Assembly: GCA_973895155.1 (NCBI GenBank)
Contig: OZ316894.1
Span: forward strand, 4,364,944-4,428,943
Direction of reading: 5' to 3'
DNA length: 64,000 nt
DNA from: Marsupella aquatica
Taxonomy: Eukaryota; Plantae; Marchantiophyta
In this document: positions 8,039 through 55,856 of the stretch, piece by piece
How positions within the stretch are numbered: position 1 is the first letter of the stretch
Layout of the letters: each line of letters begins with the position of its first letter
Made by a program: the position numbers and the translations under genes
Notes under the pieces: generated by a model
Told to the model about the DNA's origin: nothing
The model's input: the letters and a program-made list of their open reading frames with translations, nothing else
The model's database searches: none

Positions 8039-8059
8039 CCATGCCTTGCAAGTACTAGG

Positions 8060-9365: not shown

Positions 9366-9815
9366 CCCTGCAACAAATTGAACCATCTTTGATTAATGCG
9401 TAGGGAAGGATCCAAACCCTAAACCTACCACACAAACCCTAACCCTAAAGTACAATGCCATACAGTACGTTACAAGGCCTTAACGTCGTTTTTCGAAGAA
9501 ACCCTAACATTTAACGTCGTCAATGGACCCGCAAACAATGACCTTTAAAACACTAAGTACGATGTTTATCCAGATTAACGTCGTTAAGTACGATGTATTA
9601 TGTACATCGTTTCTCGTAACGACGTCTGTAACAACGTAAAATCAGGAAAACGGCGGATCCGCGAGGTTAGGCATCCCCGGTCATTTCCTTTGGGAAACAT
9701 TGGGGGAGTATCGAGGGAGTGTTTGAATGTGACTCACATTCAACATTCCCCACCTCTAGTCCTTACCTCTCCTTGCCTCCTCTACCTCACATAATCGCTC
9801 ATAGAATAGTCTACC

Positions 9816-27625: not shown

Positions 27626-30376
27626 TATAATACTCGTTGATAGCCAGCTTTCCAATAAACCTAAGATTAGGGCAAATAGAGTGCACTATCCTACCCAATG
27701 GTGGAACTAAACTGGCTTGTCTTTTAAAACTTACACCTTTTATGACTTTTGTGAGGAGGAGACGTGGCTACTGTTGGTATGGGCTATCTAGCTTGACCTT
27801 CTTGTTTTGGTACTTTTAGGACCCCTAAATGCCACTAGTCGTATTAGAGACCTCCTAGAAATAGACCCTCACATAGAAAATGTCATCAATAGACATATTT
27901 CAAAAGGGGTATTATCATTGTTTGGTGTGTAAGTGCCCAGCTGATATTAAAGCCTAGGAATGATGATATATTGTACCATCCTTATTAAACACATCTAAAG
28001 TAATGCTTTGTTTTTCCAGGGCACCAACTTTACTTGACCACAAGAGAACTATATGGCATTTCACTGTCTAGTAAAAACAGGGGGATGATTGCCTCCTATC
28101 GGCCCCTCCTCTTTATTGTTCCTTTACTCCATTGGCCCCTTTACTAAATTTCACAAAGGTATTTACATGGGCACATACAAAGTACACATGAGGCCAACCC
28201 AAAGTCCAAAAAATGCACTACCATTGGATGTAAAACCATAGTTTGTGTATAAAACATAACAATGCAGTCGGAAGGAGGGGTAATTTCATTCATTTATAGG
28301 CAAGGGGCATAACTCATTAAATGGCTTCATTTGTGACTAAAAGGGAATAATTGTTTCACATTCCTCACATTGCCTGGTATTCCCGCTGGTATTAGAAAGG
28401 AGTGAGGTCCCAGGCTGGGGTATCTCTCAATTGCTTTACCACCTCAGCTAGACCCCTTGCTTACAATCCTTTAATAGAATCTCACACTACCTTGTGTTAT
28501 GTAGTTGTATGGTTTTCCGTGTGAAGGTCTCATTAGGGTCTAAACCCTAAACACTAACTATAATTAGGGTTTAGGGTTTACTGTCAAACATTGAGGCTTC
28601 TTATATTTGTCTGTCAGTTTATAAGCATTCTGAAATTGTCTTCAAATTAATGGGTTTCTTTGTAAAGCACGAGAGTTCAGGCCCCTTCATCCAATTTTGA
28701 AGTTGCAAGTTACTTGATAATTGTTCAATCCATGACGTATGAGTCCACATTTGCTTGAGTTAAATGTCCTTGTTGATATGGCCACAGGTGAGAAATTCAA
28801 TCCCTCATTTTCTACTTGAGGACTAGGATCTTTCAAAAGCTATTTAGCTCCCTTCATGCTGAAGGGCCTTGAGGCAATGGTGGGGCATATAAAACACTGT
28901 CTAGCTCATTAGAGTGACTGTATTTTATCTCCTCAAAAGTTGCTTTAATCTCAAAATTTTCTAGTCCATAAAACTATGTGGGCAATCACAAGTAACCCTG
29001 ATACAACTAAGGATCACAATTTTTGGAGACACCAACAAACCTCCTTTCTAAATAGCTCATCAATCTATCTCCTCTGTCACACCATTTGGAGTGATAGTAT
29101 AGTGTATTATACTATCTGGATTTTGTGGTCTATATCATGGGTGTCATATGTCAAGTACTTTGTTTATTTGTGTTTGTGAGGGATATTTATCCCTTTGAGT
29201 CTGATTGAATATTAAAGTGAGTCTCTTCTCTGGTCAATCATGGAAGAACTACTAACTTACTGTAATTTGTTGTGTGCACCAGTGATGAAATGGATGATTG
29301 CACATTAGTCTATTTGAGTTTCAAAGTGGAACTTAGGGAGCATTGGAACCCATTATAAAGCCCACTCAGGGCTGGTGTATATGCAACTCATTTAGACATA
29401 GTGACAGTAAAAGAGAAGATGTGATATATATCATGATTAAACTGACTAACCTTTTCAAATTGTTAGGGCCTCATCACCTAAACCCTTTGTTATTGTCTGG
29501 TGAAAAACATGGCGAGTATTTTCTCTGCCTTGGAAATTAACTCCTATAATACACAGTTGCGCCACTTTTAAAGTGGTCTTCATTCAAATTTCACTACAAC
29601 ACTATCGGCCGGTTTTGCGAAGACAATCTCATCGCAACTAACAAGCCCCTGATTTTCATAATTCTGGCTATTGCGAACATACGCGCATCGCACCCCCTTT
29701 GCACTTTGCGAACCTAATAACTTCGCACGCGGACCATCGCAATGGCATCGCAACATCATGGCAAACTGAGAAGCTGAGAGGTTCGCAATATTCAATACTT
29801 CTGCGATCCATTATACGTCGCATAAGGTTCGCAAACATACACGCACACGTCCCGCGCGGGCGTCAATATTTGAGACGGATTTACCATTGCATCATATTTG
29901 CGATTGATACTGGTTCAATTGTTTTGATGGGGATTGTATGACAAAGAGCGATACCAGTGATTTCAGAAGTTTGTGAACGGTTTCGATTAGGAAAGTGCGA
30001 TCCTAGAAGTATCACAAAAACCCGACATATTTGGATCTGAAGTTCTGAAGTTAATTGACTCAAAAAGTGCGACGCCTTGGGGTTAATATTGTGCGATGGG
30101 AATGAGTTCTTAAAGGGTTCGCAAAATTATGATCACACAGGATTCAATACATTATTTGCGAGGGGTTTTCCTTGGAATCCAATGTGGAAGGCAAAATTGT
30201 TGTTTTATAAAATGGAAAAGCATGAACAAAATGATAGGGCTTCAAAGAACCCTATACATGGACAAGAGGGGGGAAATATCTGATGCTAGGTCCGCCCTTC
30301 TAAACCTATGCTGCCTCTTCCTACCCTAAGCTCCGGCATGACAAGTCACTCTCATGCATGTATCTCTACAAAATAA

Positions 30377-32424
30377 CTAGAATGGGCTCTTGCGGCTCCT
30401 CTTGGTTGGCTTCTTGGCTGGCTTCTTGCCCTTATCCTTCCGGGGATCCTGTTGGTGACAGGTGCGTGATAGCCGTCGGCGCTCCTGCTCCTGCTCCTGC
30501 TGCTCCTCTGGCTCCTCCTGCCCCTCCTGCTCCTCCTCCTCATCCTCAGGGTCCTCCTCCTCCCCCTGGTCATCAACGTGTGCTGATGACACACGACTAC
30601 CACCACTACCACGGTGGGAAGAACCTACCTCACGACTACTCCCCCCCCGAGCACCACTAGTACCAGGAGTAGCCCCCTCATCGTCATCACTACTGGTCAC
30701 ATCAGCACCCGACCCCTCAGGCTCATCCGAATCCTGCATCCATTACATATCATTAGTTTCCGCAAGACATAAAGGGTCACTCACAATGTTCGCATGCTAA
30801 TCATATGGTTCACACTTAGACACTTACAATAGCCAACTCGGCATCTACCATCGCAAAGAGGTACTTTCGTCCATGCTCTATCGCCACCTCAATATGCTTT
30901 TTTGATATCTTCCTTTTGTACCTCCGATACTGCCATGCATAAAACCAATTAAAATTGGTTAAATTTGCCCTTAAGCATACCCTATAGCCACAAGTGACGC
31001 CTAAATCCTCAACTACTAAACATGACCCAAAAAAAATTTAAAATTCAAATTTGCGAACTTATAAGCATAGCAACTTGCGAACCACCTTTTTTTGCGAAGG
31101 CGTTGCGATGGAGTTTGCGATGCGCATTTGTTCGCAAAGGCATCGGAAAATTGAAATGGAAAAAGTCTATGATAGACTTTGCGAGGGGTTTGCGAACAAA
31201 TACGCATCGCAACACCTTCGCAAACTGTGTTCCCGAGAGTTTTTAAAAATTTGCCAGAAATTCTAAGTGTCAGAGTTGCCCTAAACTAGTAACCAAGCAA
31301 GCATGCACAACAGCAAGAACCTTCGGGGATGTCATTCACTTGCATTCCGGGCTTGCATTGCATAACTCTGAAAGGAATAGAGAGGTTAGGGAGGAGCAAG
31401 AGGCACTCACAAAGTGTGACTTGAGGCCGGGGAGCCCGCCTTGACCCAACTTGTGGACTGGATTGGGGGTGGATTTCACTCGTTTGGCTGCATCTGTGAA
31501 ACGCTTGGGTGGCTTTCCCTCCTGGTCGGCCACCTTCTGCATCTCAGCTACCTTCTGCTCAAGTGGCTTCAGGTCGTGGTCAGGGGGGAGCTTCCCGGCC
31601 TCCTTTGCTTTCAAGGCTCGATCTAGATTGCCCTTCCACTCTTCCAACTCGTGAGCTGCCTTAATTTGCACCTCAATCTTGTAAAACGAATTCCAGATGT
31701 CCTCGGTGAAGTGGAGGGGTCTGCGCAAGTTCCTGTATGATCTCAAGTCTTTCAGGTGGGCTCTAATCTTCATCCTGTCATGGTATCGCATTTGAGACAT
31801 AGAATTTGAAATCTTATCTGCCAACCATTGCTCATCTATGTCAGGCCCATTGCGAAATGCATCCTTGATTTGGTTGATGACCCTCTTTCGCTCTGCCTTC
31901 TCAATCTTCCCCCACTGCATGCCTCGTGAGAAATTGCTTGTGATAATCTGCTTGATTGTGCTCTTAGCCCCTGCATACGCTAGCTCAGTTGGAGTCCCAC
32001 TCGTCTCCAAGGCAATGAATGGAAGTTTTTTTCTTGCTTCCTCTTTCTGACGTTGCTCCTCCCTCTGTTTTTGAATTGAATCTCTCTCCTCTCTTCTCTT
32101 CTGCTTCTCTAGGGCTTGAGGAGAGGCAACTCCCGACTTAGTTCTTTCCTCTCTCTTCCTTTTTTTCTCTCTAGCCTTCTCTTCAGTTGCGGCCCTCTCC
32201 TCCCCCTCTCTAGTAGCTTGTCCTGCTACAATTCCAGTTTGCAAAACCTGTCCAAGAATGGCACTCAAAGAGGCAAGCCCTGCTGGAGAATTGAGATTCA
32301 CTTCTCCCAATTGTGCAGCACTGAGATGTTGGGCCACTAAGTCTGCCCAGGCATTCTTCTCTTTCTCTGGATTTCCCCCATTGCCACTACCACCTTGCCC
32401 TCCACTCCCCTCACCGGTAGCCAT
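30377..32424 (-). CDS. CACTA-2 ORF2 (TnpA/Ptta-like), exons 32424-31411, ~30930-30828, ~30733-30377
   Basis: FRNGPDIDEQWL and HKLGQGG..F|gtgagt motifs; same exon layout as the other two ORF2s. Confidence 0.75.
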
Positions 32425-32849
32425 AGCTCCCCTCTCTCACAGTCTCCCTCGTACTGTTGCGCGCGCCCCGGCCCTTCTCGTCTCGCTCAAAAACTGAAAT
32501 GAGCCCGAATGCGAGCTCCCGCCGATGTTTACGCCGTTCAAAAACGGGTTTGCGATGACATACGCATGGGAAACTGCGAAGCCCGCGCCCTCGCAAATAG
32601 TCTCGCAACTTGCGAGGCACTTCCGAATCTATTCCCTTCGCAAAGCCATCGCAACCCGCAGAAGACCCAAAAAATCGTTCTCGGCCTCTGTTTTTGTGAA
32701 GCAAGTGCGAAGGTCGTAGGTTCACAAAAAGATTCTCTAACTTGTGAAATAATTTGCGAGGCAGGTCTTATCGGTTTAGGGTTGGAAAACACTTTGGGGT
32801 GTCAAACAGCTATTAAGGTTTGTCAAACGACATTTAAGGTATGTTAAGT

Positions 32850-33715
32850 GCCCATAAGTTAACATGGAAGGGGTGTCAATGGATGTTTGGGTTGTAAGGA
32901 TAACTAGAATATAAGTTAACAAAGGTTTGGGTTTAATTAAAGGTTAGGTTTATATTTGGTTTTAATCTAGGAGTATTTGGTTTAATTAAGGGGGTTAAAA
33001 CTTGGGTTAGGTTGGAATAAAAGGGTTGGGTTTAAATTAATGGGTTTGGCTTAGGGTTCAAGGTAGAGGTTTGCATTAGGTTGTGAGTAATTACAGGGGT
33101 TGGGTTTGGTTTTAGTTGAGGGGTTGAATTGTGGTTGTTTTTTAAAGGGATTGGGTTTGGTTTTTAGTTGGGGGGTTTAATTGTGTTTTTTTTAAAGGGG
33201 TTGGGTTTCTAATGTAAGTGTTTGGGTTGGGGTGTAACATGATATAGGGTTGGATTTGGTTCTAATTGAGGGGGTACAATTTTTGCTTAAGTTTTAAAAA
33301 AGGGCCTCAATTTAGGGGTTAGGGTGAAGTTTAGAATAACTATAGGGGTGGGGGTTGGCCTATATAGGTAAAGTAAGGTGTAGATAGGGTAAGAGTTTTA
33401 TATGTAATTGGGGGATTTGGGTTGGGTTTAGGGTAAAGGTTTGAAATTTTAATGAGGGATTTGGGTATTGGTTAGGATAAGGGTAAGGGTGTAGGGTGCT
33501 TGAGGGATTTGGGTTAGGTTTTAATGAAGGGTTTCATTTCATGGTTTGGGTTTAGGGTAGGGGTTTGGGTTTAGGGTAAAGGTTTGAATTTTTAATGAGG
33601 GATTTGGGTATTGGTTAGGATAAGGGTAAGGGTTTAGGGTGATTGAGGGATTTGGGTTAGGTTTTAATGAAGGGTTTCATTTCATGGTTTGGGTTTAGGG
33701 TAGGGTTTGGGTTAC
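32850..33715 (+). repeat. GT-rich degenerate telomere-like (GGGTTT/TTTAGGG) tract including a 143-bp tandem duplication (33422-33711)
   Basis: Strongly strand-skewed gggttt/ttaggg runs in the spacer between ORF2 and the transposase. Confidence 0.85.
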
Positions 33716-35125
33716 TTATATTTCTTTGTCTATCTCATTAACATGGAGAGGAAAACTCTTTGGCGTTGTAGGGCACTTCCCCATGTTTTTTAAAGTTTTG
33801 GCTAATGCATGATAATGCCTTGCGAGAGCCCGGGCATCTGAAAGGTATAACATTTTCTCATGCATTTCTAGTCATTGCTGTAAATATGGAGGGTTACAAT
33901 CTATCATCCTTTTTTTATGGTTCACCATAAGGCATGGCTTAATTCATTGTATATTGGCAGATTTTCCCCTCCTTCCAGATTTGGTTCATGAAATTTGAGC
34001 CACAAGATCCGTCAAGGCATTGCTAAGCCCGGGTCTCATAAAGGTATTTTTCTGTCAATTCTTTTTAATATGTTTAGGTAGGGATTATCAATGATGGTTT
34101 TGGTGAAGTTTTTACTAATCGCCTTCCAATTGCTATACTTGTCAGATGTCTTCATCCTCTACAACTTCCACCACATCAGATTCCTCTTCCGATGAAGAAA
34201 GTCATCCTCCTCCTCAACCTGAACCAACTGTACGTCGACCTAGTGGTCCACCACGCCAACTTTGTGGTTGTAAAACACTAGTACATTTTTGGGCCTTTAT
34301 TCGATAGGATTTACATCGGATCCCTTCAGGAAAATTGACGCAAAAATTTCTATCATCCGATGCAATTCCCAACGCACTTTGCGATGCGCAAACCATCGCA
34401 TATCGACCATCGGACTTCCATCGGACTTTCCGATATTTTTTACGACGGACGTTCCGTTGTAACGTGTTACGGATATTTTATGTCCGTTGTAAAATGAATC
34501 GGATAACTAACACGCGACGGCACACGACGATTTCCTATGTCCAATACTATTTAAATCGGTATGTCCGATATATTTGACATGGCAATTTGCGAAGGAATTT
34601 GTATCAGACATTGCGTTATTTATAATAACGGAAAGTGCGTTACTTTTTGTATCGGACTATCCGATATATTTAAGATGGGAACCTTGAAGGAGGGGTCCGA
34701 TGCGTTGGGGATGGGAAAGTTCGAAGGCAGCAGCATTGGACACTGCTATATTACCGATACGGATGGTAACGGACTTGCAACGGATTATCAAATGTTCTGG
34801 GGGTGGAATACAGGGTTTCATGGGTGGTTTTTGGGGGGTTTGGGTATTGGTTTAGGGTTGAAGGTGACATACACCAATTAGGAACCAAAGATAATGCTAT
34901 AAACACGAGGTCAAAATATCATATTCAAAAAGGGGATCACCCCAATATGTACAAAATGGATTAGGCCTACTGGGTAGACCCATCCTGGTCGTGATGGCAT
35001 GATAGAAGATGTAAAGAGAGCTTTGACTAGAGACTACACTGAGCTATATACAAGGTACCTCCGAGTGAGTGTCTAATCAAAGCTGTCTAGCACTAGATAC
35101 CCGACCACCTAAATGCAACTAACCT

Positions 35126-37477
35126 CTAAAAAGGTGTGTTGCGTCCCTTCTTCTTCTTTGGGCGAGAACGAAGGGTGGGTACAGGTCTAGCATCATGAGA
35201 GCCCTCCTCCCTCTGGCTGCCCACAACCGTGGCAGCCACCTGCTCACCAGATGGCATGGGTTGGCCTGATGCAGGCCTAGACCCTGACCCACTAGATGCA
35301 CCGCTAGGGTGGTCAGGCAAGGTAGATGTCCCACCAACCCCCGACACGGCAGAGTGAAAGGACGCCTCAGCTCCTCCCGCAGACCTGCTAGAGTGATGGG
35401 ATGGTGCGCCGACAGATCCTGTGGGTGGCCCATGTCGTGCTGTACTCCCACCAGACTCACGAGATGGTGCGCGCCCTCTAGATCCACCATCCGGCACGTC
35501 GCCACTACCTCGTCGGGAAGGGCCACCTGCACCAGATACTCCTACGTGATCGCCTCGTCCCATGCCATCACCTCTACTACCCCCTGAGTGCCTGGGCCCC
35601 GCACCCCGTGATGCTCCACAGCGATGGGAGCCCACACCATCAGCAGCATGTGACCCACCCCTCCCTGCTGATGGGGCAACGGCACCAGATGGGGCAACAA
35701 CACCTCGGACCTGAGGAGTAGGGGTGACTGTGGGCACCCTCCCCAACCCTGCCTCAGCATCCTGCTCAGAATCTGAGTCCAGCTCCTCCGACCCAGACCC
35801 CTCCTCATCCTGCGCAATAGGGTTTAATTGCAGTTAGAATGAATGGTCCCGACCATAACTCTAACAAATTCATGACAACCTTAAACATTATATCACCCTA
35901 GGGTGAACACTTACCTCTCCCAACTCATCCTCAAGGTGGCGCTTTAGAGCGCGGGGTCCATCCGTCTTTGCCAAATTCCTCTCCAACGGCGCAATAGGGC
36001 GACCATACTCCCGCTCCTGAAATTTAAAGATCCAAACCATAGAGGCCAGGTTAATATCAAATCTAGTATTAGCGTGCCCTACCCTAAACCAAGCCACCCT
36101 ACATAGCCCTAATGTAACCTTAAACCATAGTTCACCCTAACTTATACTCTACCCTAGTAAAAAATTAACGTTAAGTATGTTCATTCAAAAATTTAAATGT
36201 TTTGCCGAGGGGTCCGATTTAGAGTCCGATACAGCCTGCATCGGACGTCTATCGGATGCGTAACAAGAAAAATGGCATGACACGGTGTCCGATGCTGCTT
36301 CCGATGCAAAACCTATCGGATGAGTATCGGAAAGAACAGGCCCAAGAGCAAAAATGAGTTTTGCAAAGGGTTTAAACAAAAGACATAAGGCACAAACAAC
36401 TCATTCTTCGTGCGAGGAGTCAGGTGATCAGGGAGTCGAGGTGGGGAGGAGAGGGAGGGCACTTACAAACTCAGCCTTCAATCGATTGGAGCCGCCTTGC
36501 CCCATCCGGTGAGTGATGGTTGGCCTCCCCTGCACTCTCTCCAATGCTGCTATGATGTGCCTTGGTGGTTTGGGGAGTCTTGCTGCCTGAGCTGCCCATT
36601 GTTGCAAGTTCTGTTGAAGGGGGAGGATATCAACATTCTCCCCAGCCTTTCGCTTCTCCTCTGCCAGCCTAATTTCGTTGTCCCAATGTCTTCTTTTCAG
36701 CCAGGCACGGACTGAGAGTTCCTCCTCAAGCCAAGCCGCCCACTCATCCGGGGAAACATCGTCTGGACAACCCTCCTCCCTGATCACCTCTACATCCACT
36801 GCCATATCTCCAAGGTACTTTCTGAATTTCTCTCGCTGATGATTGCGCATGTCTGAGAGTGATGCTGAAATTCATTTGTTTAGGAACCTGTCATCAATGT
36901 AGGCCCCGTTCCTGAACCGTTCCTTCACCTGCTCTCTGATTCTCAATCTCTCTTCCTCCTTCTTCTTGCCCCAGTAATCCAGTGGCCCCAAATTGGCCCT
37001 CAGCACCTGCTTGAATTGGCTTCGGAATAGATGGTAGCTCTTAGGCAATGGACCACCACCCGAATTGAGAGCTAGCTCAGGCCTGAGAGCTCTCTCTGCC
37101 TCCTTTCGCCTCTGCTCCTCCAATCGCACCTTCTCAATTGCCCTAGCTTCTTTTCGAAGCTTTTTCTCTCGTTTTCTTGGAGACAGTGTCTCCTCTGCAT
37201 CCCCCTTGCCTCTCTTTGCCTCTTTCTTCCTCTTCTTTGCCTCCTTCTCACTTGCAATGCTTGCAGTAGCAGTCTTCTCTGCCTCACGCCGAGAGGCATC
37301 AATCAGCGTTTGGAGGAGTGGGACTACTCTCTCTGCGTCCTCCACACTCAGCCCTGCCTTGGCCACAAAAATGTCCCTCATAACTTCATTGTATGGCTGG
37401 GACGGTCCCCCTTGCTCTCCACCACCACCTGATCCCCCTTCGTCTCTCCCACCACCTGATCCCCCGCCCCCCTCCAT
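35126..37477 (-). pseudogene. CACTA-3 ORF2 (TnpA/Ptta-like), frameshift near 36870
   Basis: FRNGAYIDDRFL and HRMGQGG..F|gtaagt; later exons ~36017-35915 and 35809-35126. Confidence 0.75.
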
Positions 37478-38140
37478 CTCTCCTCCTCCTTCAAGCTCTC
37501 CTCCTTGATCCAGCTTCAAAAAAATTGAAAAACACCAAGTGCGAAACGGGGCCCGACGCGCGGGTCTTCGCACCTGCATCGGTTCTTTTTTCCGAAACAA
37601 AACCTGCTGCTTCCGATTCTTTCTATTTTGGACTTTGCGAAACCAAAGGTATCGGACACGCAATCGGACTTTCCGAAACTATCTGCTTCGGACCCCTCGT
37701 CCTTTTCTTGTGGCCGTGTATTTACCAAGTGTGGCCCGTTTCCTATTGCATCGGACCCCTCATGAATTTATATCGGATACCTCTTGGCTTTCCCAAAGGG
37801 GGTCCAATATAATGTTTTGAATTTGGGTTGGGTATAATGGGATTGGAGGGTTTAGAGTATAATTTAGGATATTTAGGTTTTGTATGGGGTAAGGGCACAT
37901 GGTTGGAGTTATTATTTGCTTTCATATTTGAATCCGCGTTTTGTAGGGCTCTACATATGTGAACGGGACAGTGAACGTGTCATGCATGTAGAGGGACCTC
38001 TTGCAAGTTTCTTTGTTGCGGAGAACAAATTTTGGGGTTTGTACCGGACTATGTAATTTTTTTGATAAGCTATGGTCTTGCATGCTTAATATATTGGGCT
38101 CTAATTAATGATGCAATTGTGTATAGAGTCTTGGTGTTTT

Positions 38141-38850
38141 AGGGGTGGTTGTGGTGATGGGAACTCAATACTATGATATGTAATATAGGATCAAGAAAAT
38201 ACTACAAGAAGTTTTTGTATGAACCATTTTCGGGTGAAAGCCTTTTGTTTCATTTCTTTATAGGGGATTATGGGTGTACGTAGAGGTTTTATTAGTATAA
38301 CATTATACCTTTTGTTAGGATAATATTAAACCCCTTCATTAGGCTAATCTTTGTGTTTGGATTTGATGTGTAGTACCTTGCTTTTGGAGGGGTGGTTAAC
38401 TTTTTTTGAGGGGGTAGGGAGGTTTCAATTTTGGACAATGCACTATGCATGAAACCGTGCATCCAGGAGGTATGATGTCCTCTTGCAAGTTCCTTGCAAG
38501 TTTAGGGATGGTTGTGGTGATGGGAACTCAATACTATGATATATGATAGACAAAATACTACAAGAAGTTTTTGTACGAACCATTTCTTGGTGAAAGCTAT
38601 TTGGATCATTTCTTTGGAGGGGTTTATGGGCTTAGGGTTATGGGGTTTTACTAGGATAAGGTTACACCTTTTCTTAGGATAAGGTTCAACCTCCATATAT
38701 TAGCTAGGCTAATGGTTGTGTTGGATTTGATGCACAGTACCTTGCGTTTGGAGGGGTGGTTCAATGTTTGTGAGGGGGTAGATAGGTTTTGTTTTGGACA
38801 ATGCACTATGCATAGTGTGAGACCGCGCATCTAGGAGGTATGATGTCCCC
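38141..38850. repeat. Diverged tandem duplication (~360 bp x2)
   Basis: ggttgtggtgatgggaactcaatactatgatat...ggacaatgcactatgcat...aggaggtatgatgtcc occurs at ~38141 and ~38504. Confidence 0.85.
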
Positions 38851-39167
38851 GCTTCACGAGCCGCATCATTTACACTTAATTTGTATGTTGGAATTTTTTT
38901 ATATGTGGTGTGTTCTTCCTACACTCTTTCGCACTTACAGATTATGTATGCTCATTAGCAAAATGCTCACCCATATATGCAGAGATTTTGGATGTCCCAC
39001 ACCTTGTGTGTAGAAAATACGACACAGTAGGCTGGCAAAGCGCGGGTATCATTGAGGTACAACAGGACTTTTGTATCTCATGCATTAATTAATTCTATTT
39101 TGATACTCCAACACTTGTCTTCTTTTATGCAGCTTACATGAATTCAGAGTGTACTTCATGCATGCAG

Positions 39168-42100
39168 ATGTCTACTTCTGATAGTTGCACGTCAGATTCA
39201 GACTCAGACACAAGCTCGTCTGAGGGGGAGGTTCCTCCACCCCCTCCTCCAGATCGTCCTCGTGCTCCACTAGGACCCATACCTTGCTGGTGTGTGAGAT
39301 GTAAGGGACTTGTGGTTTGACATGCGTGGGAGACTTGTGAGCACATCGAGAACTATGGCCGCCACGAGGGTGATATGCCAGGGTATTTGCCTAGCCAAGT
39401 ATATATATGTTTATGTCCCCTATTCATTCCATATATGCATTCCAATTTAGGGTATTGCTTAATTATCTTGCATTTACATCCTGGCACTACTTAATTTATT
39501 AATTTGTGTAAAACCATTGTACGTGTGTTGAAATAGGTGCCTCGTAGGCCCCCACCTCCTTTGGTTCCTGAAGCTGTGTGGTTGGAAGGGTTTCTAGCAA
39601 GGGCCAGGGAGTTGCTTGCAGTTCCTCCTGCCCAGATGCCTCTTAGCCCACCTGCTCCTATCCCCACTCCCGTGCCCACACATGAGCATGTAGAGGGGGA
39701 ACCGGTCTCTCGGCCCGAGGTTGTGACTACTAGAGTCCTACGTACACGACCACGATCTGGTAGACGTAGACGGCAGTATGGACCACTGGACCAGGTAGAC
39801 AGACGAAAGGAGGTGTTAGGTACTAGTGATCGACCAGCCGGTAACGTAGATTATATTTGCGTTGAGGGCAGGTTTGGACTATCCTATCTCACTGGTAGGG
39901 CTGCCGAAGTTTTGAAGGACTTTTCTCCAAGTCTCTTCAAATTTCCAGATTTTATTCCTACAGATGAACCAGTTCAGATATGGGGTCGCCCTTGGATAGT
40001 GAAGGCATCCTCTATTGGTCATGATATAGGATATGGTCTTTTTGCTTTGGAGGATATTGTGGTCCCTCCAAAGCCATGGAGACGTGGTTATGATGGAGAG
40101 CACCTCTTTCCTTACATTGGGGCTGTATATAACTCCAAGAGTTGGAATATTTTGTTGCGTCAACACCCAAGTTGGGGGGTGTATGCATTGAGGATGGACT
40201 CAAACCCGGATGAGGTCTTCACTAGGCCGTGGCATTGCCGGATGATTGATGGTGACCCTATTCGGAACGGTAATTTAGCAGGGTACATCAATAGTACCAC
40301 AGGTAGAGATAGAGGTTTGGAGGCTAATGTAGAGTGGATTCAAATGTTTGGTCCACCTAGACATCCATATTTTGTGAAACATATGGACGACCATATCATG
40401 ACAGTAGCTGTTAGGACCATTAGAGCTGGTGAGGAGTTATTGTGTGAGTATGAGTGGGATGCACCAAAATTGTCCTTGCGTTGTCGTCCATGATAGTTTC
40501 TTGGACTTACATACATGTATATATATGTCAATTTATTTTACATGTTTACATGAGAATGATGTTGTTCAACAGTGCATGTGTTGATGAGATTAATTAATTG
40601 ATGTTGTATGATAGAATCAATATGTAACGCCTGATATTGGGGTAATATCACGAGCTATGCGACAACACCTTGTTGAGGCCATGGTGGCCAACCGTGGGCA
40701 TGAACCACAAAGGCAAGAGGATGGGGTACGACATGATGGTGATGATCCTATCCAAGACCATCTTGATGAGGAGAGGGCCATGGATGAGCTCATGGACCAA
40801 TTCTATGATGATCACGATGACATTGGTTTGGAGGACATTGGTTCAACCCATGAAAGGACTAGTCATCCACATCCTTCTAGGGGGTCCCAAGACAAGCAAT
40901 GGGAGGAGGCGCAACGTCATGCCCGTACTCGCATATTCGAGGGGAGTAGGTTATCTCGGCTCTCATCAATAATGTTGTTGCTCAACTTGCAGCAAAGACA
41001 TGGGGCAAGCAATCTACTTTTGGATGATGTTTTCCGTACCTTGCATGATCGTATTTTGCCAGTAGGCAATGCATTGCCAGCCTCTTGGAAAGAGGCTAAA
41101 CAGGTGTTGAGGTCCATTGGCCTGAAGTATGAGGTGATACATGCATGTGTGGATGATTGCATTCTTTTTAGGGGTGAGCATGAAAATGCCACTACATGTC
41201 CTAAATATCAGAAGCCACGGTACCGTGATGACATGTTGACGGGGAAGGTACCGCAAAAGGTTATGAGGTACTTTCCTCTTATCCCTCGATTGCGACATCA
41301 ATTCCGATGTGCAGAGTTGGCTGAGATGATGGTATGGCACTCACAAAATCGTTCTGATATGGCTGTACCCTCTAGTGCCATGCGGATGATGGTTGACTCT
41401 CCTGCCAATTGATTTGTAGAGGATAGATGGGGAGAGTTCAAAATTGACCCACGACATGTTCGACTAGGCTTGGCAGCAGACGGTATCAGCCCTTTTGCTT
41501 TGACAGGAAAAGCCAAACCATATTCGGTGTGGCCAGTAGTGTTGACAAACTACAACATCCCTCCTTGGATGGCCATGAAGAAAGGTCACCTACTACTCTC
41601 CATGATTATTCCGGGTCCTAAGCAAGTTAAAAAGATTGATGTGTACTTGCAGCCATTGATTGATGAGTTGATACAATTGTGGAGAGGAGTGGATTGTTAT
41701 GATGGACGTCACAACACAGGAGGTTTATCCCGCGTATTTACTCTAAAGGCCATCCTTATGTGGACCATGCATGATTTACCAGGTATGGTAAACCCTTATT
41801 TCCTCTAGTACCTAAACCTTGTATTTAATTGCAATTATGCAGATTTTTGCCTTGATGAACCTTATTTTATGAATGTGTTTTCTATGCACTGGGCAGGGTT
41901 TGGATATGTTTCTGGATTGCAAACATCAGGCTATCGAGCTTGCTCTACATGTGGACCCGATTTGGAGGGGGTGGCCAGGCCCAAGTCAAGTACTCTGCAA
42001 AAAATTGTTTACATTGGTCATACTAAATATCTTCCACCAGACCATCCTTGGAGGAGTGATCCATTCCTTTATGATACTGATGAGGGCCAACCTGATATTC

Positions 42101-43860
42101 GTCCTCAACCTCAGCGGAAGGATCTAGCATATTGGAGAGAGGTATGGGGGAGAGTTCAGGATCCGAGTGATCCATTACCATTATTCAGATGTGGCATGAC
42201 CCGTTTGTCTGCATTGTCACAATTGCCATATTGGTCAGATATGCCCATTAATCACTTGTTAGACCCTATGCACATTGAGGGGAATGTGGGGAAATCATTG
42301 ATTCGCCATCTATATGGGGAGAAAAATAACAATTGGAGAGAAAGTTGTGAGGAGATGGGGATGCATGGTCTTTTGGGTTTTTGGCCATCTTTGGACCCCC
42401 CTGGTGCTCCCCCTAGCATCCATCCTCCTTGGGTTTTGACAAGGGCAGAGCGCATTGAGTTTCGCAGACGTATTGGGTTGATGAGGTTTCCCACAGGTTA
42501 TGGTACCAATCTTCGGAAGGCATTTGGGGGGGAGGATTCTCCAAAATGGCCATCTTTCTTGAAGACACATGATTATCATCGGTTGCTTGAACATGTTCTT
42601 CCAGTTGCTATTATTGGATTGGGTAGTGAGGAACTTCGTGATGCCCTTTGGTCATTGGGTAAGCTCTTAAGATGGGTATGTCAAAAGGAGGTACAGGAGT
42701 CCGATGACATTGCTGCTATGGAGATATTTGGAGTAGAGGTTGTCTGCAAGTTGGAGAAGGCACTCCCTCCCTCATTCTTTGATGGTCAGGTTCATTTCCT
42801 CATACATTTAGTGCACGAGGTTGCAATTGCAGGCCCAGTACATTGTCGATGGATGTATTGGGTAGAGCGTTATATGGGGGTGATGAAGTCATATGTCTTT
42901 AATCGCGCTAGGGTGGAAGGTAGCATTGCGGAGGGTCATCTTGGAGCAGAGAGTATGTTTTACTGTACAAACATAGTTGCCACACTAGATCCTAGTGCTC
43001 CTAGGGGAGGGATAGATGAGGCAGCACGAGAGGCTGACTACGAGGATGATAGACTCACTGGGGCATCTGGAGAGCGTCTCATAGGCTCAGCAGAGCGTTT
43101 ACAGCTCACAACATTTATGTTGTATAACTCACCCGAGGTTGTCGGGGAGTGGACAACATTTTATGAGGAGGAGAAGCAAAACAGTCGATGCCCACGGTTA
43201 TTTCCCAAGTTTCACCCATACATGAAGGAGAAGTTGTTAGAAGTGGATGCCCTGGTGGGTACCGGGGAGAGTGTATTACACTACCCAAATGTGACAGATA
43301 AACTTCGTACCTTGGTTCATGGTCCACTACTTATAGTCACGACTCGGACTGCCATGTGGTCAAAGGGGAGACATTTTCGTGTGGAATGACTTGATGAGAA
43401 GAGGGCAGCTACACAGGATTGTGGGGTGATGGGTTGGTTCACCCAAGATTCCCAGAGTAGCATGTCAGACATGAATCCCATTCGCTCCACCGTGGCCCAT
43501 TATGGGAAGATTGAGGAGATCCTAACAGTGAAGTACCATGCACATACTACTTTGGAGGAAGTGGTATTCAAGTGCAAATGGTTCAAGATGAATCTTGTAG
43601 GCCACAATCGTACTTGTGAAGATGATGCATGCGGTTTTACTCGTTTGAAGACATCCGCAAATAGTGTCATCAGTTCCAACTGGAGGTCCTCAGATCCCTT
43701 TGCCTTCCCACATCACCTTGAGCAATGCTTTTACCTACCCTATCCCAATGACCCCGAGTGGTCCATTGTCATGCCGTATATTCCCAGATCACGGTCCATA
43801 GTCCAAGAGAGACCCAACGTAGTTGTAGTGGAAGATAGAGACATACCCCCCACGAGTTAG
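39168..43860 (+). pseudogene. CACTA-3 transposase (exons ~39168-39398, 40615-41782, 41897-43860), three in-frame stops
   Basis: PCWCVRCKG transposase-associated motif; HACVDDC, LAADG, LDPMHIEGN, WMYWVER. TGA at 39318, 41410 and 43387. Confidence 0.9.
39537..40493 (+). CDS. SET-domain exon (putative lysine methyltransferase) of CACTA-3
   Basis: IGYGLFA, FPYIG, YAL, IDGD..GNLAGYINS, NVEW and VAVRTIRAGEELLCEY; acceptor aaatag|gtg; open frame. Confidence 0.9.
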   Translation: MPRRPPPPLVPEAVWLEGFLARARELLAVPPAQMPLSPPAPIPTPVPTHEHVEGEPVSRPEVVTTRVLRTRPRSGRRRRQYGPLDQVDRRKEVLGTSDRPAGNVDYICVEGRFGLSYLTGRAAEVLKDFSPSLFKFPDFIPTDEPVQIWGRPWIVKASSIGHDIGYGLFALEDIVVPPKPWRRGYDGEHLFPYIGAVYNSKSWNILLRQHPSWGVYALRMDSNPDEVFTRPWHCRMIDGDPIRNGNLAGYINSTTGRDRGLEANVEWIQMFGPPRHPYFVKHMDDHIMTVAVRTIRAGEELLCEYEWDAPKLSLRCRP

Positions 43861-44828
43861 TATAAATTGTAGACCCCACCATCTTCATGTATATTTTTAC
43901 CGGCACTATCTTTTTATCGGCATTCTACGATTTTTCTCATTGTCCACAATTTCATGCAGTATACATATCTATTGCTTAAAGTATGCCCCATATCTGGATC
44001 CATTAATTCCATGCAACCTATACATTGTAAAACACTAAAGTCCCATATGTCCCATTCAAATACCATCGGAAACATATCGGACACACATCAGTACTGCCAA
44101 AGCCAAAAACCCCTTCCCATCCTCAAAGTATTGGATTTTCCGATACTATAAGAATCGGAAGCCACTATCCGATACTCCACAGATCGAACACTTAAGCCCG
44201 AGGCCGAGGAGGGGTCCGATAGAAATTTCAACGGATAATAACCGATACCTAAGCCTTTGCAAATGATTTCCGTTGTAACTAGTATCGCAAAAATAAGTCC
44301 GATAACACTTGTATCGGTAAATGTCCGAAAGCAAACCTATCGGAATTAGCTTTCGATACTATTCTTATCGGACGTCTGAAAAACATGTCGGCTCTCAATT
44401 TGCGATACAGGATGTTTCGGACATTGTCCGATATGATGGGGATTGGATAAGGTTTTCGATACAAAAACTATCGGATAGTAATGTCCAATTTTGGTAGTAT
44501 CGGAAGTTCCGTAGCTGAGAGTATCGGAACGTTTCCGTTGTGTTTAGTATCGGGCGCGTTGAGAAACGCGTGTTTTTAGTATCGGAAAAGTGCCTAAAAT
44601 GTACTAGTGAAAAATGTGTGGGGATGGTTGTCCAAAAGTCATATGTATGTGCGGAGCACATTGCTCGATATGGCCAACATCGAGGTCTTACACCGGGAGC
44701 TTCTTCATCCCGTATGGTGAGTTGTAAACTTACTGTGATTTCCATTTTATTTTGTAAATCTTGCTAGGTAGCATAAAATAAAATTTGGGAGGTTCATCAC
44801 ACTCACTTGGTTCCATTTCTTCCTATAG

Positions 44829-45644
44829 GTATCCAGTAGGCCTACACCCACTACACCAACACCCTATGTTCCCTCACAAGGAGTTCTAGATGCTATAGGC
44901 TCGGCACTTTCACAAGCTTTTCATTTAGTGGCAGCAGGGCAAGGTAGTGTTGGGACAATTAAGGGTGACAGTATTGTTACAAGAGGGAAAAAAAAGTCAA
45001 AAAGACAGCCTAGAGGGGAAGTGGATCAGTACACTTGTAGGGTTGATGGTAGATGGGGCCCTTGTACCTTCACAGGGAAGTGTGTTCCTATCATAAAGGA
45101 TTGGAATCCGGAGTGCCTTGGTTTGCCATGTGATATAACCTATGGTGAGGAGATAGAAGTTTGGGGAAGACGTTGGGTTGTCAAGAGTTCGACCCTAGGG
45201 GAGAGGCATGGGTATGGGATTTTCTCTTGTCAGGACATTATTGTGGATGATATGGGTGGAAAAGGGCGCTCTTCAGATGGACCAACGTTGTTCCCGTATG
45301 GTGGACCCATTTACAAGAGGAGACATTGGAACATGATCCTTGTTCAACACCCTTACTGGAAGACTTATGCATTGGACATGGATACTTTTGATGGTTGCAC
45401 CAGAAAGTATTGTGACCAGCGTATAATTGATGGTGATCCCATCCGTAGTGGGAATATTGCCGGTTTCATCAACAGTACTGTGGGGACCCGGCCTAAGCGT
45501 AGGAAAAACTGTGAATGGGTTTTTGTTGATGGTCCCTCTCCAGCCCCTTATGGGCAGAGATATCATCATGACCATTGTCTAGTTGTAGCTAATAGGACCA
45601 TTCTCGCTGGAGAGGAGTTGTTTACACATTATGAATGGGATTAG
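44829..45644 (+). CDS. SET-domain exon (putative lysine methyltransferase) of CACTA-2
   Basis: HGYGIFS, FPYGG, YAL, IDGD..GNIAGFINS, NCEW and VANRTILAGEELFTHY; acceptor ctatag|gta; open frame. Confidence 0.9.
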   Translation, partial: VSSRPTPTTPTPYVPSQGVLDAIGSALSQAFHLVAAGQGSVGTIKGDSIVTRGKKKSKRQPRGEVDQYTCRVDGRWGPCTFTGKCVPIIKDWNPECLGLPCDITYGEEIEVWGRRWVVKSSTLGERHGYGIFSCQDIIVDDMGGKGRSSDGPTLFPYGGPIYKRRHWNMILVQHPYWKTYALDMDTFDGCTRKYCDQRIIDGDPIRSGNIAGFINSTVGTRPKRRKNCEWVFVDGPSPAPYGQRYHHDHCLVVANRTILAGEELFTHYEWD

Positions 45645-48600
45645 GATTACTTTAGGGACATGTATTATACGTTCATCGTATGTGAATGTATGTTTTGTAA
45701 TGACATGTTCTTTTTATATTGTTAATAATATGTTTCGAGCACTACTATATTTGGCGTTAATTTCATTGTGAATACTTTATTGTATTGTCTATAGAATGTG
45801 CGGCCTAGTCAAGATATGTTGCCAAGGAGGTTGAGAGCTACATATCAAGAAATGGGCTTGCCACAAGACGGGGAAACATCATCAGCAGATTCCTCATCAA
45901 GTGACAATGATAATGACAGTCCAGATGAAGGGGCACCTCGGACAAATTATGAGGTCATGCAAGACCAAGAGTCAGCCATGGATGACTTCATGACAGATTG
46001 GTTTGGTGTAGACATTGGTGGTGAAGGAGGTGTCCCACCCAATGAAGGAGACCCTCCACCAAATGTTGCACATGATCCAAGGCCTCAACGTACACCTGAA
46101 GGACAAAAACAATGGGAAGAAGCTGAGGCACATGCTAGAACACCTATTTATGGGGGTGCTCATTTGAATAGACTATCTGCCATCTTGGCATTGATGAATC
46201 TTCAGGCAAAACACAAGGCAAGCAATGCGCTACTATCGGATTTGTTTGCAATTTGCCATGATCTCTTGTTACCTAGTGAAAATGTGTTGCCAGGAACTTG
46301 GAAGGAGGCAAAGAGGGTTCTATCATCCATTGGCATGGAATACCATATCATTCATGCTTGTGTGAATGATTGCATTCTCTATCATGAGACCAATGCCAGC
46401 GCAACTAAGTGTCCAATTTGTCAAGAGCCTCGATATGAAACCAACATGTTGACCTCAAAGGTGCCTAGAAAAGCTGTTCGTTGGTTTCCTATTATTCCTC
46501 GATTGTTGCACATGTACCGATGTTCTGACTTGGCAGAATTGATGGTATGGCATAAGACACATCGATCAGAGGCCGGTGTCATGCGGTTGCCAGTTGATTC
46601 CCCTGCTCACAAGCATGTGGAGTCACAATGGCCAGAATTTTCACGTGACCCTCGTCATGTGAGGTTGGGGTTGGCATCAGATGGGGTAAGCCCACACTCC
46701 CTTGGAGGGAAAGGGCGCCCTACTTCAGTTTGGCCGGTGGTTGTTATGAATTACAACCTTCCCCCATGGTTGTCCATGAAAAAGGGATTCTTATTGCTAT
46801 CATTGATTATCCCAGGTCCATCTAAGGTAAAAAACATGGACACCTACTTGGCGCTCTTGGTTGGGGAACTCCATAAATTATGGGGGGGTGTATGGGCATA
46901 TGATGGTCGGACAACTACAGGAGGGTTACCACGTGTCTTCCAATTGAAGGGAATCATTATGTGGACCATGCATGACTATCCAGGTGAGTGGTATGGATTT
47001 GTATTTTTTTCATGTATTGGAGATCAAGTTTGTTTGGAAGGAAGTCCCTCTTTAATTCTATGTACATGAACTTTTCAATTCCTTTGACTCTAATTGAGAA
47101 TGTTATTTTGTGAGCAGGGTTTGGGTTTGTTTCTGGGTTCCAAACTCAAGGGTACAAGGCATGCTCCACTTGTGGTCCAAGCCTTCACGATATGGCCAAG
47201 TACTCAAAATGGTTGCACAAGATAATCTACCTTGGTCATACCAAGTTTCTTCCACTTGGGCATCACATGAGGTCTGACCCCCTTTTGTTTTCAGACTTTG
47301 ACATGATCAATGGTGATGAGCGTGAGATACCTGACCGCACAACATTTTCGTATTGGAAATCCATAGCTGATAGGGTGGCAGACCCTGAAGATGCCATGGG
47401 ATTTGATGGTAGTGGATTGACAAGGTGGGGTATACTGGCCACTTTGCCCTATTGGCCTGAGTTGAAGATTCATCACTTGTTAGACCCCATGCATATAGAG
47501 GGAAATGTTGGGAAGGCTTTGATCAAGCACTTTTATGGGGAAAAGAACATTAATTTTAGGGAGGCATGCCAGGATCTAGAACGACATCCAGATGTATGGA
47601 TAACAGTTGATGAATCCACAGGGATGGAACATCGTCCTTCAGCTCCATGGGTTTTGAGTGTTGGTGAAAGAAGAGAGTTTCGACAACGCATAGGGCAAAT
47701 GCGGTTTCCTACAGGCTATGGTGCCAATCTACGTAAGGCTTTTGGGATGGAGGACAGTCATAAATGGCCAATGTATCTCAAGACACATGACTATCATCGT
47801 TTACTACAACATATACTTCCTGTGGCAATCATAGGTTTGGGGAGTGAAGAAGTGCAAGACGCCCTTTGGTCACTGGGCACTTTGTTGAGATGGATATGCT
47901 CAAAGGAAATATATGAAGAAGAGATACCACGGATGGAGGTATTGGCAGCAGAGGTGGTATGCAAGTTGGAGAAGGCCCTCCCTCCTTCCTTCTTTGATTG
48001 CCAGGTGCATCTTCTCGTTCATCTTGTGAGGGAGGTTGCCATTGCCGGTCCGGTGCATTGTAGGTGGATGTATTGGCTGGAAAGGTATATGGCCGTGTTA
48101 AAGGCTTATGTACGGAACCGTGCACGAGTGGAGGGGAGCATGGCAACTGGATACTTGGCAGCTGAGAGTATGTTTTATTGTAGTAACATCTTAGCTACCA
48201 TTGATCCTAGTTTTCCACGCACTTGGATGGAAGAGAGGGAAGTGGAGGAGGACCGTTTAACAGGTGCAAAAAAAACACGCTTACTAACCGCAGTGGAGTT
48301 GACACAGGTTAGTACTTTCATGTTGAGTAACAGCAATGTGATGGAAGATTGGAGAGAGTTTTATGAGGATGCAAAGAGGGAGAGTCGTCGCCCAAGGATC
48401 TTTCCAAAGTTCCTTGAGTATATGAAGGAGAAAGTACTTCAGTTGGATGCTATGGTGGCCCAAGGTGAGAATGTATCACATTTTCTAGATATGACTCCTG
48501 AGGTTCGAACAATTGTTCATGGTCCTTTAAGACTTGTTCAAACCAGAACAGCAATGTGGACACAAGGGAGGCATTTCAGGATTTCTGACCTTGATGAGAA

Positions 48601-50840
48601 GAGGGGAAGAACTTTTGATTGTGGAGTTCAAGGGCAGTTCATGCAAGATTCACAAAGTAGCCGTCATGACACTAATGTGATCAGAGATGTGGTGCCTCAC
48701 TATGGGAAGATTGAGGAGATCTTGATCATATCCTATGATGCCGATTCCAAATTTGAAGAGTATGTCTTCAAGTGTAAGTGGTTCAAAATTCACCTGGTTG
48801 GTGATAATCGCACGGTACTTCTTGATGAGTGTGGGTTTACTCGACTGAAGACATCAGCAACTAGCTTTCAACCATCTCATTGGCAAACATCTGAACCATT
48901 TACATTCCCAAGTCACCTTGAGCAGTGTTTCTATATTCCGTACCCACCAGACCTAGAGTGGTCAGTTGTTATACCGTATGTGCCACGGTCCCGTTCCATT
49001 ATCTCGGAAAAACCTGACGTTATTATTGTGTCAAATGGAGGCGAGGATGAGGACCAGGTTTGATGCACTAGTAGTAAAACTTGTTGTGGGCCCAGAATTT
49101 GACCCTAAACTAACTATCATGGTTTTATTTATATTAACATATTACTTTTCTTCTTTTGTTTTACAAACACTTAATTGAACTTTGAAATTTCATCTCACTG
49201 TTATATATGCAACCTTAGCCGTTTCCAAAGCTATCCTCATGCATGCCACCTTTTTGAAAACCCTAGCTGTAACCTAAACACATGCATTCTCCATCTTGTA
49301 AAGAAACTCTCTCAAACATTTCCATTCTACAAAATTTTCAAACAACTCTCTTTGCAAAACATTTTCAAGCTTGTCAAGAAGCAACTTCTGAACACTTTGT
49401 GAATAACACACCATCGGTAATTGTGATGCCAATGTGTTCTCAACTTTGCAAATCAACTGGATTCGGTAACTTGCGACTATTTATGCTTCACAATATTGTG
49501 CGAAGCTAATAGGTTCACAATATATATTTGAGTACATTATTATCGCTAAATTATGAAACAAAAGAGATCCAAATGCAGTCGCGATGGTTGCGGATCCACA
49601 AATACTTTGTGAGACGAATAGTATCTGAAAGAGTTGCGAATTCAATCCGATCTCAAACAAATTGCGAGGTATTTAGCTTCGCAACACCATGTTGCGAACC
49701 TGTGAGCATGGTTTATTGTGATGCGTGTTTGATCACAAAATATCTGAAGTCGATGACATCGCAAGACCATCCCGGCATAAAAAAAAAGCTTCGCAAAAGG
49801 GGCCAATATGTAGTAGTGTTTGCAGGGCACAAATTTTTTAAAAATCTGGTCAAAGGTAAGTAATACAGCCATGACCATGAACAATAATTTCATGATTGTG
49901 GCATCCTATAGTGTTGCTTAATATTTTTGCTTGAATGAGGATACATTTGGTCAATAAATTGGGATTCTGAGTAGACGTAGCTAGCCATGACAAAGGTGAA
50001 CTGTGTATTTTAGGAGTTGGTGTAAGGCATGTCTGGTTGTTGGTGTGTGGTATACAGTGTTGTATTTTCTCTCAACAAGTGGGGCTAATCACCAGATCTG
50101 ATGGTCCTCCGTTAGTAGTAAATTGAGGAGATAAAAATCCAGTGTTAGAAATAAGAAATAGGGTGAATTACATAAAATTTTGTGATATTTAATATTTAAT
50201 ATTTCCAAAGGTAGACAGTGAAGAAAAGAACGGATTTATTTTGCTAATCCCACAAATTGGTGGGCAAATTGGGTCTAGGAGATTATAAGATCAATTAACC
50301 ATAATTTTTTAATATATTTTATTTGTTGCAAACCTGAATGAGCAAAAATGATGCTCTCAGGAATAAACCCTTTGCCTTCTTACAAAGAGTTACACACCTG
50401 GCTAGTTAATAAGCAGGGGCTAAACGATTCATATAAATATTCATTTGATAATAAAATTTGTTAGCTACGTCAATGTGAATTATTTTACTTGCGATTCATT
50501 TTTTTGCATTTGTTTCATTCCAGCCTCGATATTCAAGAAGCGACTATAACATGGCTGAGTAAGTATGATGAAAGTTACTCTTGGGCAATCGTGACTGAAG
50601 ATATCAACATCTCAGTTCAAAATTTAAAATTCAAATTGATCAGCCCAAAACTTCGGAGTCGCACAGAGCGGGATTGGTTTACAGTGTTTCCAGTTTTCCT
50701 AACCTCGCGTCGTCCCCCTTTTTGTTTCATTATTTGAAGCGCGCGAACAGCATTTTTGAGTGGATCGAGCCAAGAGATTGGAGACCTGAGCTCGTTTAGG
50801 AGAGAGGATTGCTTACTTGGAGACGAGTATTTCCAAGCAA

Positions 50841-55500: not shown

Positions 55501-55856
55501 ATTACCTGGTTCATTTGGGAAGAGTGGTGAGTGACGTGGAAGAAGGAGACCTCAATGTTGAGAACAAGCTTGAACATGTGTGTTTAGTTGAGTGGTTTCG
55601 GCCACATATGGGCAAGAGTGAAGTTGGAAAAAGAGAAAGATGGAAACATTGTTGGATTAAGAAATGGGATCGTGACAACCAAGGATATCCCGAGCCACAA
55701 AGAATAAGTGTCAACAGTATATTATGGTGCTACAAGGCACGAAACACCAACTTGACTACTTTGGTTTCAATCCCAAAAGCAGTTGTCGTTACAGCACAAG
55801 ACAATCTTGATAGATGTATTGATGTAGACAAGGCTAGTATGGGTGGCCAAGTATGA
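52546..55856 (+). pseudogene. Sola-like (DUF7869-type) DDD transposase
   Basis: CCKRNCC, ICLEAW, FSKCNTC..HH, IIHDKMD, LQLDNAPSDNKN (~54605-54645) and FLMVGHTHEDVDAMF. In-frame TGA at 54209, intron ~54413-54517, frameshift ~54590. The first exon is probably further upstream. Confidence 0.8.

Follow-up and report, generated by a model that had tools for sequence, protein, structure and literature searches.

Nested CACTA elements with SET exons

The window analyzed here, a stretch of 64,000 nucleotides from the liverwort Marsupella aquatica (contig OZ316894.1, positions 4,364,944 to 4,428,943), contains three diverged CACTA transposons, designated A, B and C, that carry an exon for a SET domain. 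In A and B, a short exon 1 is followed by the SET exon, which ends in its own stop codon, and then by the transposase exons; the exon-1 donors, SET acceptors and transposase acceptors are all in phase 0 (Table 1). An earlier reading of the letters alone (the original prediction) had placed both SET exons and all six splice sites at these positions and in this phase, and our analysis agrees. Both SET frames exceed the Pfam cut-off for PF00856 (22.4 bits), with 25.9 bits for the open reading frame (ORF) of A (39537-40490) and 26.8 bits for that of B (44829-45641). PF00856 is the only Pfam family in the SET ORFs and in public gene models joining exon 1 to SET, with neither flanking domains nor a DNA methylase domain, and NCBIfam matches neither the A nor the B SET ORF.

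A and B are true CACTA elements. Scanning the window for every CACTA/G start and end revealed terminal inverted repeats beginning CACTA/G and 3-bp target duplications for both, the transposase is of the Tnp2 type (PF02992, PF13960 and PF13952 in Pfam, with D, D, E and C(2)C, H(3-4)H motifs), and subterminal repeats, another hallmark of CACTA/EnSpm elements, are present as family-specific hexamer clusters. A and B are nested and not neighbors, a correction to the original prediction. The terminal repeats place A within exon 1 of B, excision of A restores an open exon of 78 codons, and a direct joint between 34272 and 44610 is present in contigs from two of four public sequencing runs. This copy of B therefore cannot produce an intact exon 1. 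Its transposase exons comprise 1045 codons without a stop and keep all catalytic motifs, and A, which has stops in exon 1 and in both transposase exons, still has an open SET frame.

Element C is an internally deleted copy. The deletion fuses its SET frame to what appears by eye to be a 3′ remnant of the transposase, and for this reason C lacks a transposase acceptor; a phase-0 donor after exon 1 and a SET acceptor are present. Only one plausible terminus was found, at 14457, with no matching end pair in the end scan. Although the C SET frame (8063-8716, minus strand) has no Pfam match, it groups inside the family in the SET tree, so the truncated third SET exon of the original prediction stands as a family member, and not as a Pfam-recognized domain ahead of a transposase acceptor.

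Table 1. Parts of elements A, B and C in window coordinates.
Feature	Position	Strand	Description
CACTA element B (outer)	29592..49818	+	ends start CACTAC; TTT target duplication; interrupted by A
B divergent left gene, first exon	31336..32436	-	product helical; inferred candidate for a DNA-binding factor of the TnpA type
B exon 1, 5′ half	34146..34275	+	Ser/acidic N-terminus; CxCxxC motif begins
B exon 1, 3′ half	44613..44716	+	remainder of CxCxxC-x13-H motif; phase-0 donor
B SET exon	44829..45644	+	271 codons, own stop; basic stretch like a nuclear localization signal, family-specific N-terminal extension, SET core
B transposase exon	45795..46983	+	phase-0 acceptor; first two catalytic Asp motifs
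B last transposase exon	47118..49063	+	DUF4218, DUF4216; catalytic Glu
CACTA element A	34276..44609	+	inserted within B exon 1; terminal inverted repeats match at 12/12 positions; target duplication AAA
A divergent left gene, first exon	36428..37678	-	one in-frame stop
A exon 1	39138..39398	+	contains CxCxxC motif; interrupted by an in-frame stop at 39318; phase-0 donor
A SET exon	39537..40493	+	318 codons, open, own stop
A transposase exon	40615..41782	+	phase-0 acceptor; stop at 41410
A last transposase exon	41897..43860	+	stop at 43387
A right subterminal cluster	43880..44609		CpG-containing hexamer ATCGGA/TATCGG
C transposase 3′ remnant	7430..8059	-	by eye; no Pfam match
C SET exon	8060..8689	-	cut off before INS motif by internal deletion
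C exon 1, 3′ part	8819..8990	-	CxCxxC-x13-H motif; phase-0 donor
C divergent left gene	9810..11081	+	homologous to left genes of A and B

Distribution of the SET exon and selection

Relatives of the B SET frame numbered 41 among 486 candidates, and the 11 with an organism name come from Sphagnum (8) and Calypogeia fissa (3). A HMMER search yielded 91 representatives at 50% identity; 30 were looked up, and the seven that are named all belong to Riccia sorocarpa or C. fissa. Every named relative is from a moss or a liverwort, and no host SET gene is among them. Metagenome contigs contributed 48 loci out of 462 pattern matches, and in a scan of viral contigs none of 178 pattern matches encoded a relative. 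The nearest clusters in the ESM Atlas are SET proteins of Streptophyta and Haptophyta, which serves only as a lead. A practical consequence is that such copies inflate the numbers of "SET domain-containing protein" entries in Sphagnum and Riccia annotations, where a single cluster has 360 members.

Linkage to the transposase could be counted at 25 loci in which the SET end is complete and 450 nt or more of downstream sequence is available, and the transposase is the next feature downstream of SET in 19 of them. The other six, in which no transposase was detected, count against a fixed association: five are far diverged (24-33% identity), and L034, the remaining one, terminates in a fragment whose likeness to a transposase start was judged by eye only. 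The link suggested by these sequences is strong, though it falls short of the whole SET family. Separately, L040-L048 form a far-diverged SET clade on AT-rich contigs, with no transposase detected within up to 4.2 kb downstream.

The trees are consistent with joint descent. The order of nesting of paired SET and transposase families is identical in the two trees (L038, Riccia, A, B, peat family), the SET tree being a quick tree, and eight SET-linked transposases are split from 27 flowering-plant transposases by a branch with 100/99 support in a tree that has no outgroup and in which host and SET status are confounded. B forms a tight clade with P0001, P0003 and L002, a Calypogeia protein and Sphagnum copies, at 66-77% identity and a support of 99. 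A, B and C, though they share one genome, are far more distant from each other than B is from these Calypogeia and Sphagnum copies, and horizontal transfer between co-occurring bryophytes is thus possible on these sequence comparisons.

The original prediction had named the ratio of nonsynonymous to synonymous substitution rates (dN/dS) as a check on the SET exons, and neutral evolution is not borne out. In comparisons of B with ten loci, the SET core ranges from 0.157 to 0.209 and the transposase cores from 0.113 to 0.151; against L002 the values are 0.157 for the SET core (bootstrap 95% confidence interval 0.089-0.247) and 0.115 and 0.114 for the transposase. The dS values behind these ratios, 1.0-1.3, are high but similar for SET and transposase. 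Changes private to single copies, counted in 32 peat-family copies, give a pN/pS of 0.96 and act as an internal neutral control. Purifying selection together with matching trees therefore indicates that the exon has been selected in transposing lineages and has traveled with the transposase, and we consider it almost certain from these comparisons that the SET exon is element-borne and under selection. Plant DNA transposons often capture genes, and individual copies do decay neutrally, as would be expected if the exon were a fragment of a host gene carried passively by a Pack-CACTA element. Such passive carriage is nevertheless extremely improbable given a dN/dS of about 0.16 between lineages, congruent trees, as many as 91 representatives at 50% identity and named relatives that include no host SET gene. 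The selection test refutes a neutral passenger unless dS is far off in both the SET and the transposase comparison.

Exon 1 and a probable choice of terminal exon

Related loci share the exon layout even where SET identity is as low as about 30%. The peat-family loci, being copies of a single family, represent one lineage. Among them, the phase-0 GT donor of exon 1 is present at all 17 loci holding both exons, and 15 of these 17 have the SET acceptor AG. The SET stop is kept at 20 of 21 loci, and so is the phase-0 transposase acceptor AG, also at 20 of 21. In L034 and L038 (33% and 30% SET identity), donor, SET acceptor and transposase acceptor are again all in phase 0, and the phase of the transposase acceptor agrees with that of the exon-1 donor in each of the five lineages with a visible frame. 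With this recurrence, purifying selection and congruent trees, the conserved CACTA lineage with a SET exon that had originally been proposed is upheld.

Exon 1 resembles the usual beginning of a CACTA transposase. Its CxCxxC-x13-H spacing is identical to that of 68 of the 72 flowering-plant CACTA transposases with the motif (118 examined), and in ordinary CACTA transposases the zinc motif and the transposase are part of one chain. Against a profile of flowering-plant transposases, B exon 1 scores 10.5 bits, while 200 shuffles reach at most 4.5; six of ten exon-1 peptides beat all their shuffles. Because exon 1 resembles the zinc motif that opens ordinary CACTA transposases, skipping of the SET exon is likely to be needed for a transposase. 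A conserved peptide also opens the transposase exon. In A and L034, where the first ATG of this exon comes at codons 15 and 60, respectively, the peptide lies ahead of it. We therefore think that exon 1 is probably spliced either to the terminal SET exon or, by skipping SET, to the transposase, a view drawn from phases and homology.

Several observations weigh against this arrangement. Both junctions are predicted from genomic sequence, and the contigs of the four sequencing runs span introns and exons alike, have no usable splice joint and are uninformative on expression. The exon-1 peptides of A and P0065 are among the four that score no better than shuffles, and PF13963, the transposase-associated domain assigned to exon 1 by the original prediction, appears only below the Pfam cut-off (E 0.031 in one of nine exon-1-motif proteins or fragments tested), so that assignment survives in the spacing of the motif and the B score rather than as a domain match. 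No long protein containing exon 1 came up in a search for such proteins, albeit a weak one, and the L034 transposase start was assigned by eye. Moreover, exon 1 might always join SET, with the transposase made from its own start or by splicing after the SET stop. Consistent with this, the transposase exon has an ATG at codon 8 in B and the peat family and at codon 1 in L038, B has two donor-like sites downstream of the SET stop, and public gene models link exon 1 to SET, with none among those found linking it straight to the transposase. However, this alternative would leave the first ATG of A and L034 behind the conserved peptide, would give no role to an acceptor phase that fits the exon-1 donor in five of five lineages, and would separate the transposase from a zinc motif that ordinary CACTA transposases hold in the same chain; a post-stop donor of the B type is also missing from the peat-family locus L001. 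We thus regard it as distinctly unlikely. The alternative terminal exon of the original prediction is favored by phases, exon-1 homology and the upstream peptide, and it is weakened by the ATGs of B, the peat family and L038.

Four public gene models (P0027, P0081, P0125 and P0160) show a fusion of SET and transposase. We rejected this form as a likely predictor artifact because the four models place the joint at different sites, none of them the conserved acceptor, and because no phase-0 donor within the SET exon was found that is common to A, B and L001. A further protein from Logan, P0054, combines the exon-1 motif and SET within a single frame of a 2.1 kb contig, which could be a spliced transcript or an intronless family.

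Predicted activity, possible role and known relatives

The SET exon product is predicted to adopt a SET fold. The structure predicted for the B SET core has a predicted local distance difference test score (pLDDT) of 91 and a predicted template modeling score (pTM) of 0.86, and Foldseek matched it to 295 solved chains at E<=0.001, of which the 40 listed are all SET enzymes, led by SET8 (E 1.7e-7) and LegAS4 (E 4.7e-7). In VIA-align, Polycomb repressive complex 2 (PRC2), Set1, SET7/9, ASH1L, SET8 and LegAS4 tie (Z 10.9-12.1, root-mean-square deviation [rmsd] 2.2-3.1, 117-136 residues aligned), and viral SET proteins reach similar scores. Both A and B have a basic stretch resembling a nuclear localization signal ahead of the core.

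The GxG, YxG and ELxxxY motifs are retained among 51 aligned family members: each GxG glycine in 49, the YxG position as Tyr in 40 or Phe in 11 with Gly in all, and the catalytic Tyr in 46. The RFINHxCxPN consensus is altered, with its Asn in 45, Ser at the next position in 49 and His in none, and the closing Asn in 50. These counts bear out the originally proposed replacement of NH by NS and the retention of the other motifs. Two positions ahead of the catalytic Tyr lies a small or aliphatic residue, which in SET enzymes permits multiple methylation. The best match of the family profile among solved sequences is LegAS4 (E 3e-4), which likewise lacks the His of the NH motif. LegAS4/RomA is an active histone H3 methyltransferase (PMC3980110), and therefore the NH-to-NS change does not imply a dead enzyme. 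Based on motifs and models, it is reasonably likely that the SET protein is catalytically active as a lysine methyltransferase.

The C-terminal flank of SET enzymes helps close the active site, and here the evidence is less favorable to activity, a doubt absent from the original prediction. In 44 of 46 members 2-18 residues follow the catalytic Tyr, and in 16 of 46 the chain stops within three residues of it. A post-SET cysteine cluster is missing, and the B model stops where SET8 and SET7/9 run on into the flank. It is conceivable, though somewhat unlikely, that the protein is made and is no stand-alone enzyme, acting instead as a histone-tail binder or a Polycomb/Trithorax decoy, or with an active site completed by a partner. 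The family-wide loss of the flank and of the His in 51 of 51 members would fit, as would an N-terminal extension that aligns in several rows with a separate N-terminal segment of EZH2 (model 8-207 to chain 110-729, a range-level correspondence). Nevertheless, a pure decoy would not need the SAM (S-adenosylmethionine)-pocket glycines, the Asn and both tyrosine positions, which are kept even at 24% identity.

The substrate is a second point of doubt. No subfamily stands out structurally when E(z), ASH1, TRX, SUV39 and ATXR5/6 are compared, and therefore neither the substrate nor the direction of the effect can be read off. SET7/9 and SET8, both among the best structural matches, have non-histone substrates, and exon 1 is common to the SET protein and the transposase. 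An active methyltransferase might therefore modify the transposase or the left-gene product in self-regulation, or a host silencing protein, but we consider this unlikely; the closest solved sequence match, LegAS4, acts on histone H3.

A homologous divergent gene lies at the left of A, B and C. It has no Pfam match, no Foldseek match at E<=0.001 and no structural alignment at Z>=8; its residues 1-79 resemble Reb1 and BEND6 weakly (Z ~6, rmsd 2.6-3.3, 62-69 residues aligned). The lack of a clear fold match is a further weakness of any role for this gene in targeting. Family-specific CpG hexamers cluster near the element ends and around the first exon of the left gene in all three elements, with different types at matching places: ATCGGA/TATCGG in A, a TCGCAA type in B and an ACGT type in C. 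The B repeats lie at 29592-30300, 31000-31300, 32480-32780 and 49100-49818. Between two C clusters is an unnamed ORF of 204 codons (6143-6757, plus strand) with no Pfam or NCBIfam match.

These features suggest a model in which one transcription unit would yield two proteins by alternative splicing. Joining of exon 1 to the SET exon would produce a SET protein with a zinc motif and a predicted lysine methyltransferase activity; with the SET exon skipped, the product would be the full transposase. The SET isoform would methylate lysine, most likely on a host histone at element copies, and keep their chromatin permissive and transcribable, targeted through the shared zinc motif or through the left gene, whose product might recognize the subterminal repeats of its own family in the manner of TnpA. 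That histone methylation serves to keep the chromatin of the element permissive is a tentative suggestion that we rate as less likely than not. The original idea of a lineage that writes lysine methylation, possibly to counter silencing, likewise stands as a proposal. For the reading as a whole, in which a selected SET exon with two splice products and predicted methyltransferase activity keeps its own chromatin permissive, we see about an even chance. More doubtful is the broadest version, an ancient and still-spreading bryophyte CACTA lineage whose transposase gene also yields, by splicing, a minimal histone methyltransferase aimed at its own copies, which closes the active site without a post-SET flank, the family having moved between peat mosses and liverworts. 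If the model is correct, a plant transposon itself writes lysine methylation, and splicing to one exon or the other would provide the element with its own regulatory switch between writer and transposase. Bryophytes would be tractable hosts in which to ask whether an element enzymatically counters Polycomb or H3K9 silencing; PRC2 helps repress transposons in bryophytes.

Beyond the three elements, B seems to lie inside a larger element spanning 16324-23788 (minus strand) and 52541-55856 (plus strand). Its left flank encodes a NIF/FCP1-like phosphatase (PF03031), an Ulp1 protease (PF02902) and unnamed ORFs, its right flank a DUF7869 transposase-like gene, and a similar repeat occurs near 23189-24361 and, by eye, near 52100-52300. 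The ORFs 20499-21647 and 22042-22854 have no match in Pfam or NCBIfam, and the former has none in PDB sequences. A second NIF-type phosphatase ORF (3974-4582, plus strand) adjoins an ORF with an internal repeat (2119-3555) and is possibly cargo of another element. Remnants of Copia-like and gypsy-like retrotransposons were recognized by eye at 57635-63528.

No description of a bryophyte CACTA SET exon was found in the literature searched, with Repbase Reports and bioRxiv supplements, which may bear on novelty, outside its scope. Term searches of two liverwort genome papers (PMC11735767, PMC12885004) gave zero matches, and the portions consulted of PMC11982613 and PMC12477816 contain nothing on such a system. 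Likewise, the main text of a survey of 962 Spm protein models mentions neither SET nor moss nor liverwort (bioRxiv 10.64898/2026.08.24.746577), and the literature examined reports no assay of a transposon-borne SET.

Spm elements offer parallels for both splicing and targeting. Alternative splicing of Spm elements is documented in that survey, in which maize En/Spm and Arabidopsis Spm3 (TnpA/TnpD) obtain transposase and regulator from isoforms or separate genes (bioRxiv 10.64898/2026.08.24.746577). Spm termini also have family-specific CpG motifs, and the B TCGCAA-type repeat resembles the TnpA target CCVTCGCAAA of Arabidopsis Spm1 given there. However, TnpA is described as a DNA-binding protein that works through host DNA demethylases and has no SET domain (bioRxiv 10.64898/2026.08.24.746577), and the plant anti-silencing factors VANC and TnpA bind DNA and cause loss of DNA methylation (bioRxiv 10.1101/2025.02.11.637652; 10.64898/2026.08.24.746577).

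Minimal SET enzymes (SET8/KMT5A, SET7/9, Legionella RomA/LegAS4 and giant-virus SET proteins) share the fold, and LegAS4 also the loss of the NH histidine. The bryophyte family differs from them in its 15-26% identity, its own N-terminal extension and insertions, and its shorter C-terminus, and its ancestry cannot be assigned.

SET domains on other transposons provide the closest precedents. The accessory gene PAG2 of red-algal Plavaka elements, which belong to the EnSpm/CACTA superfamily, carries a SET domain for which chromatin modulation has been proposed (bioRxiv 10.1101/2025.02.11.637652). The original statement that canonical En/Spm has no SET domain thus fits the flowering-plant relatives and does not extend to the superfamily. 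PAG2 is described as a separate gene in which an N6-adenine DNA methylase is fused to SET, whereas the bryophyte SET domain is an exon within the transposase gene of a classic CACTA element and is not accompanied by a DNA methylase domain. Published accounts also report SET genes in HarbingerS and MuDR families of Phytophthora (PMC12730594) and SET-bearing Helitrons (bioRxiv 10.1101/2025.02.11.637652). These are likewise DNA transposons that encode a SET histone methyltransferase, but they belong to other superfamilies and hosts and carry SET as an accessory gene. SET domains borne by transposons are therefore known, and the literature searched contains no account of the land-plant form located inside the transposase gene.

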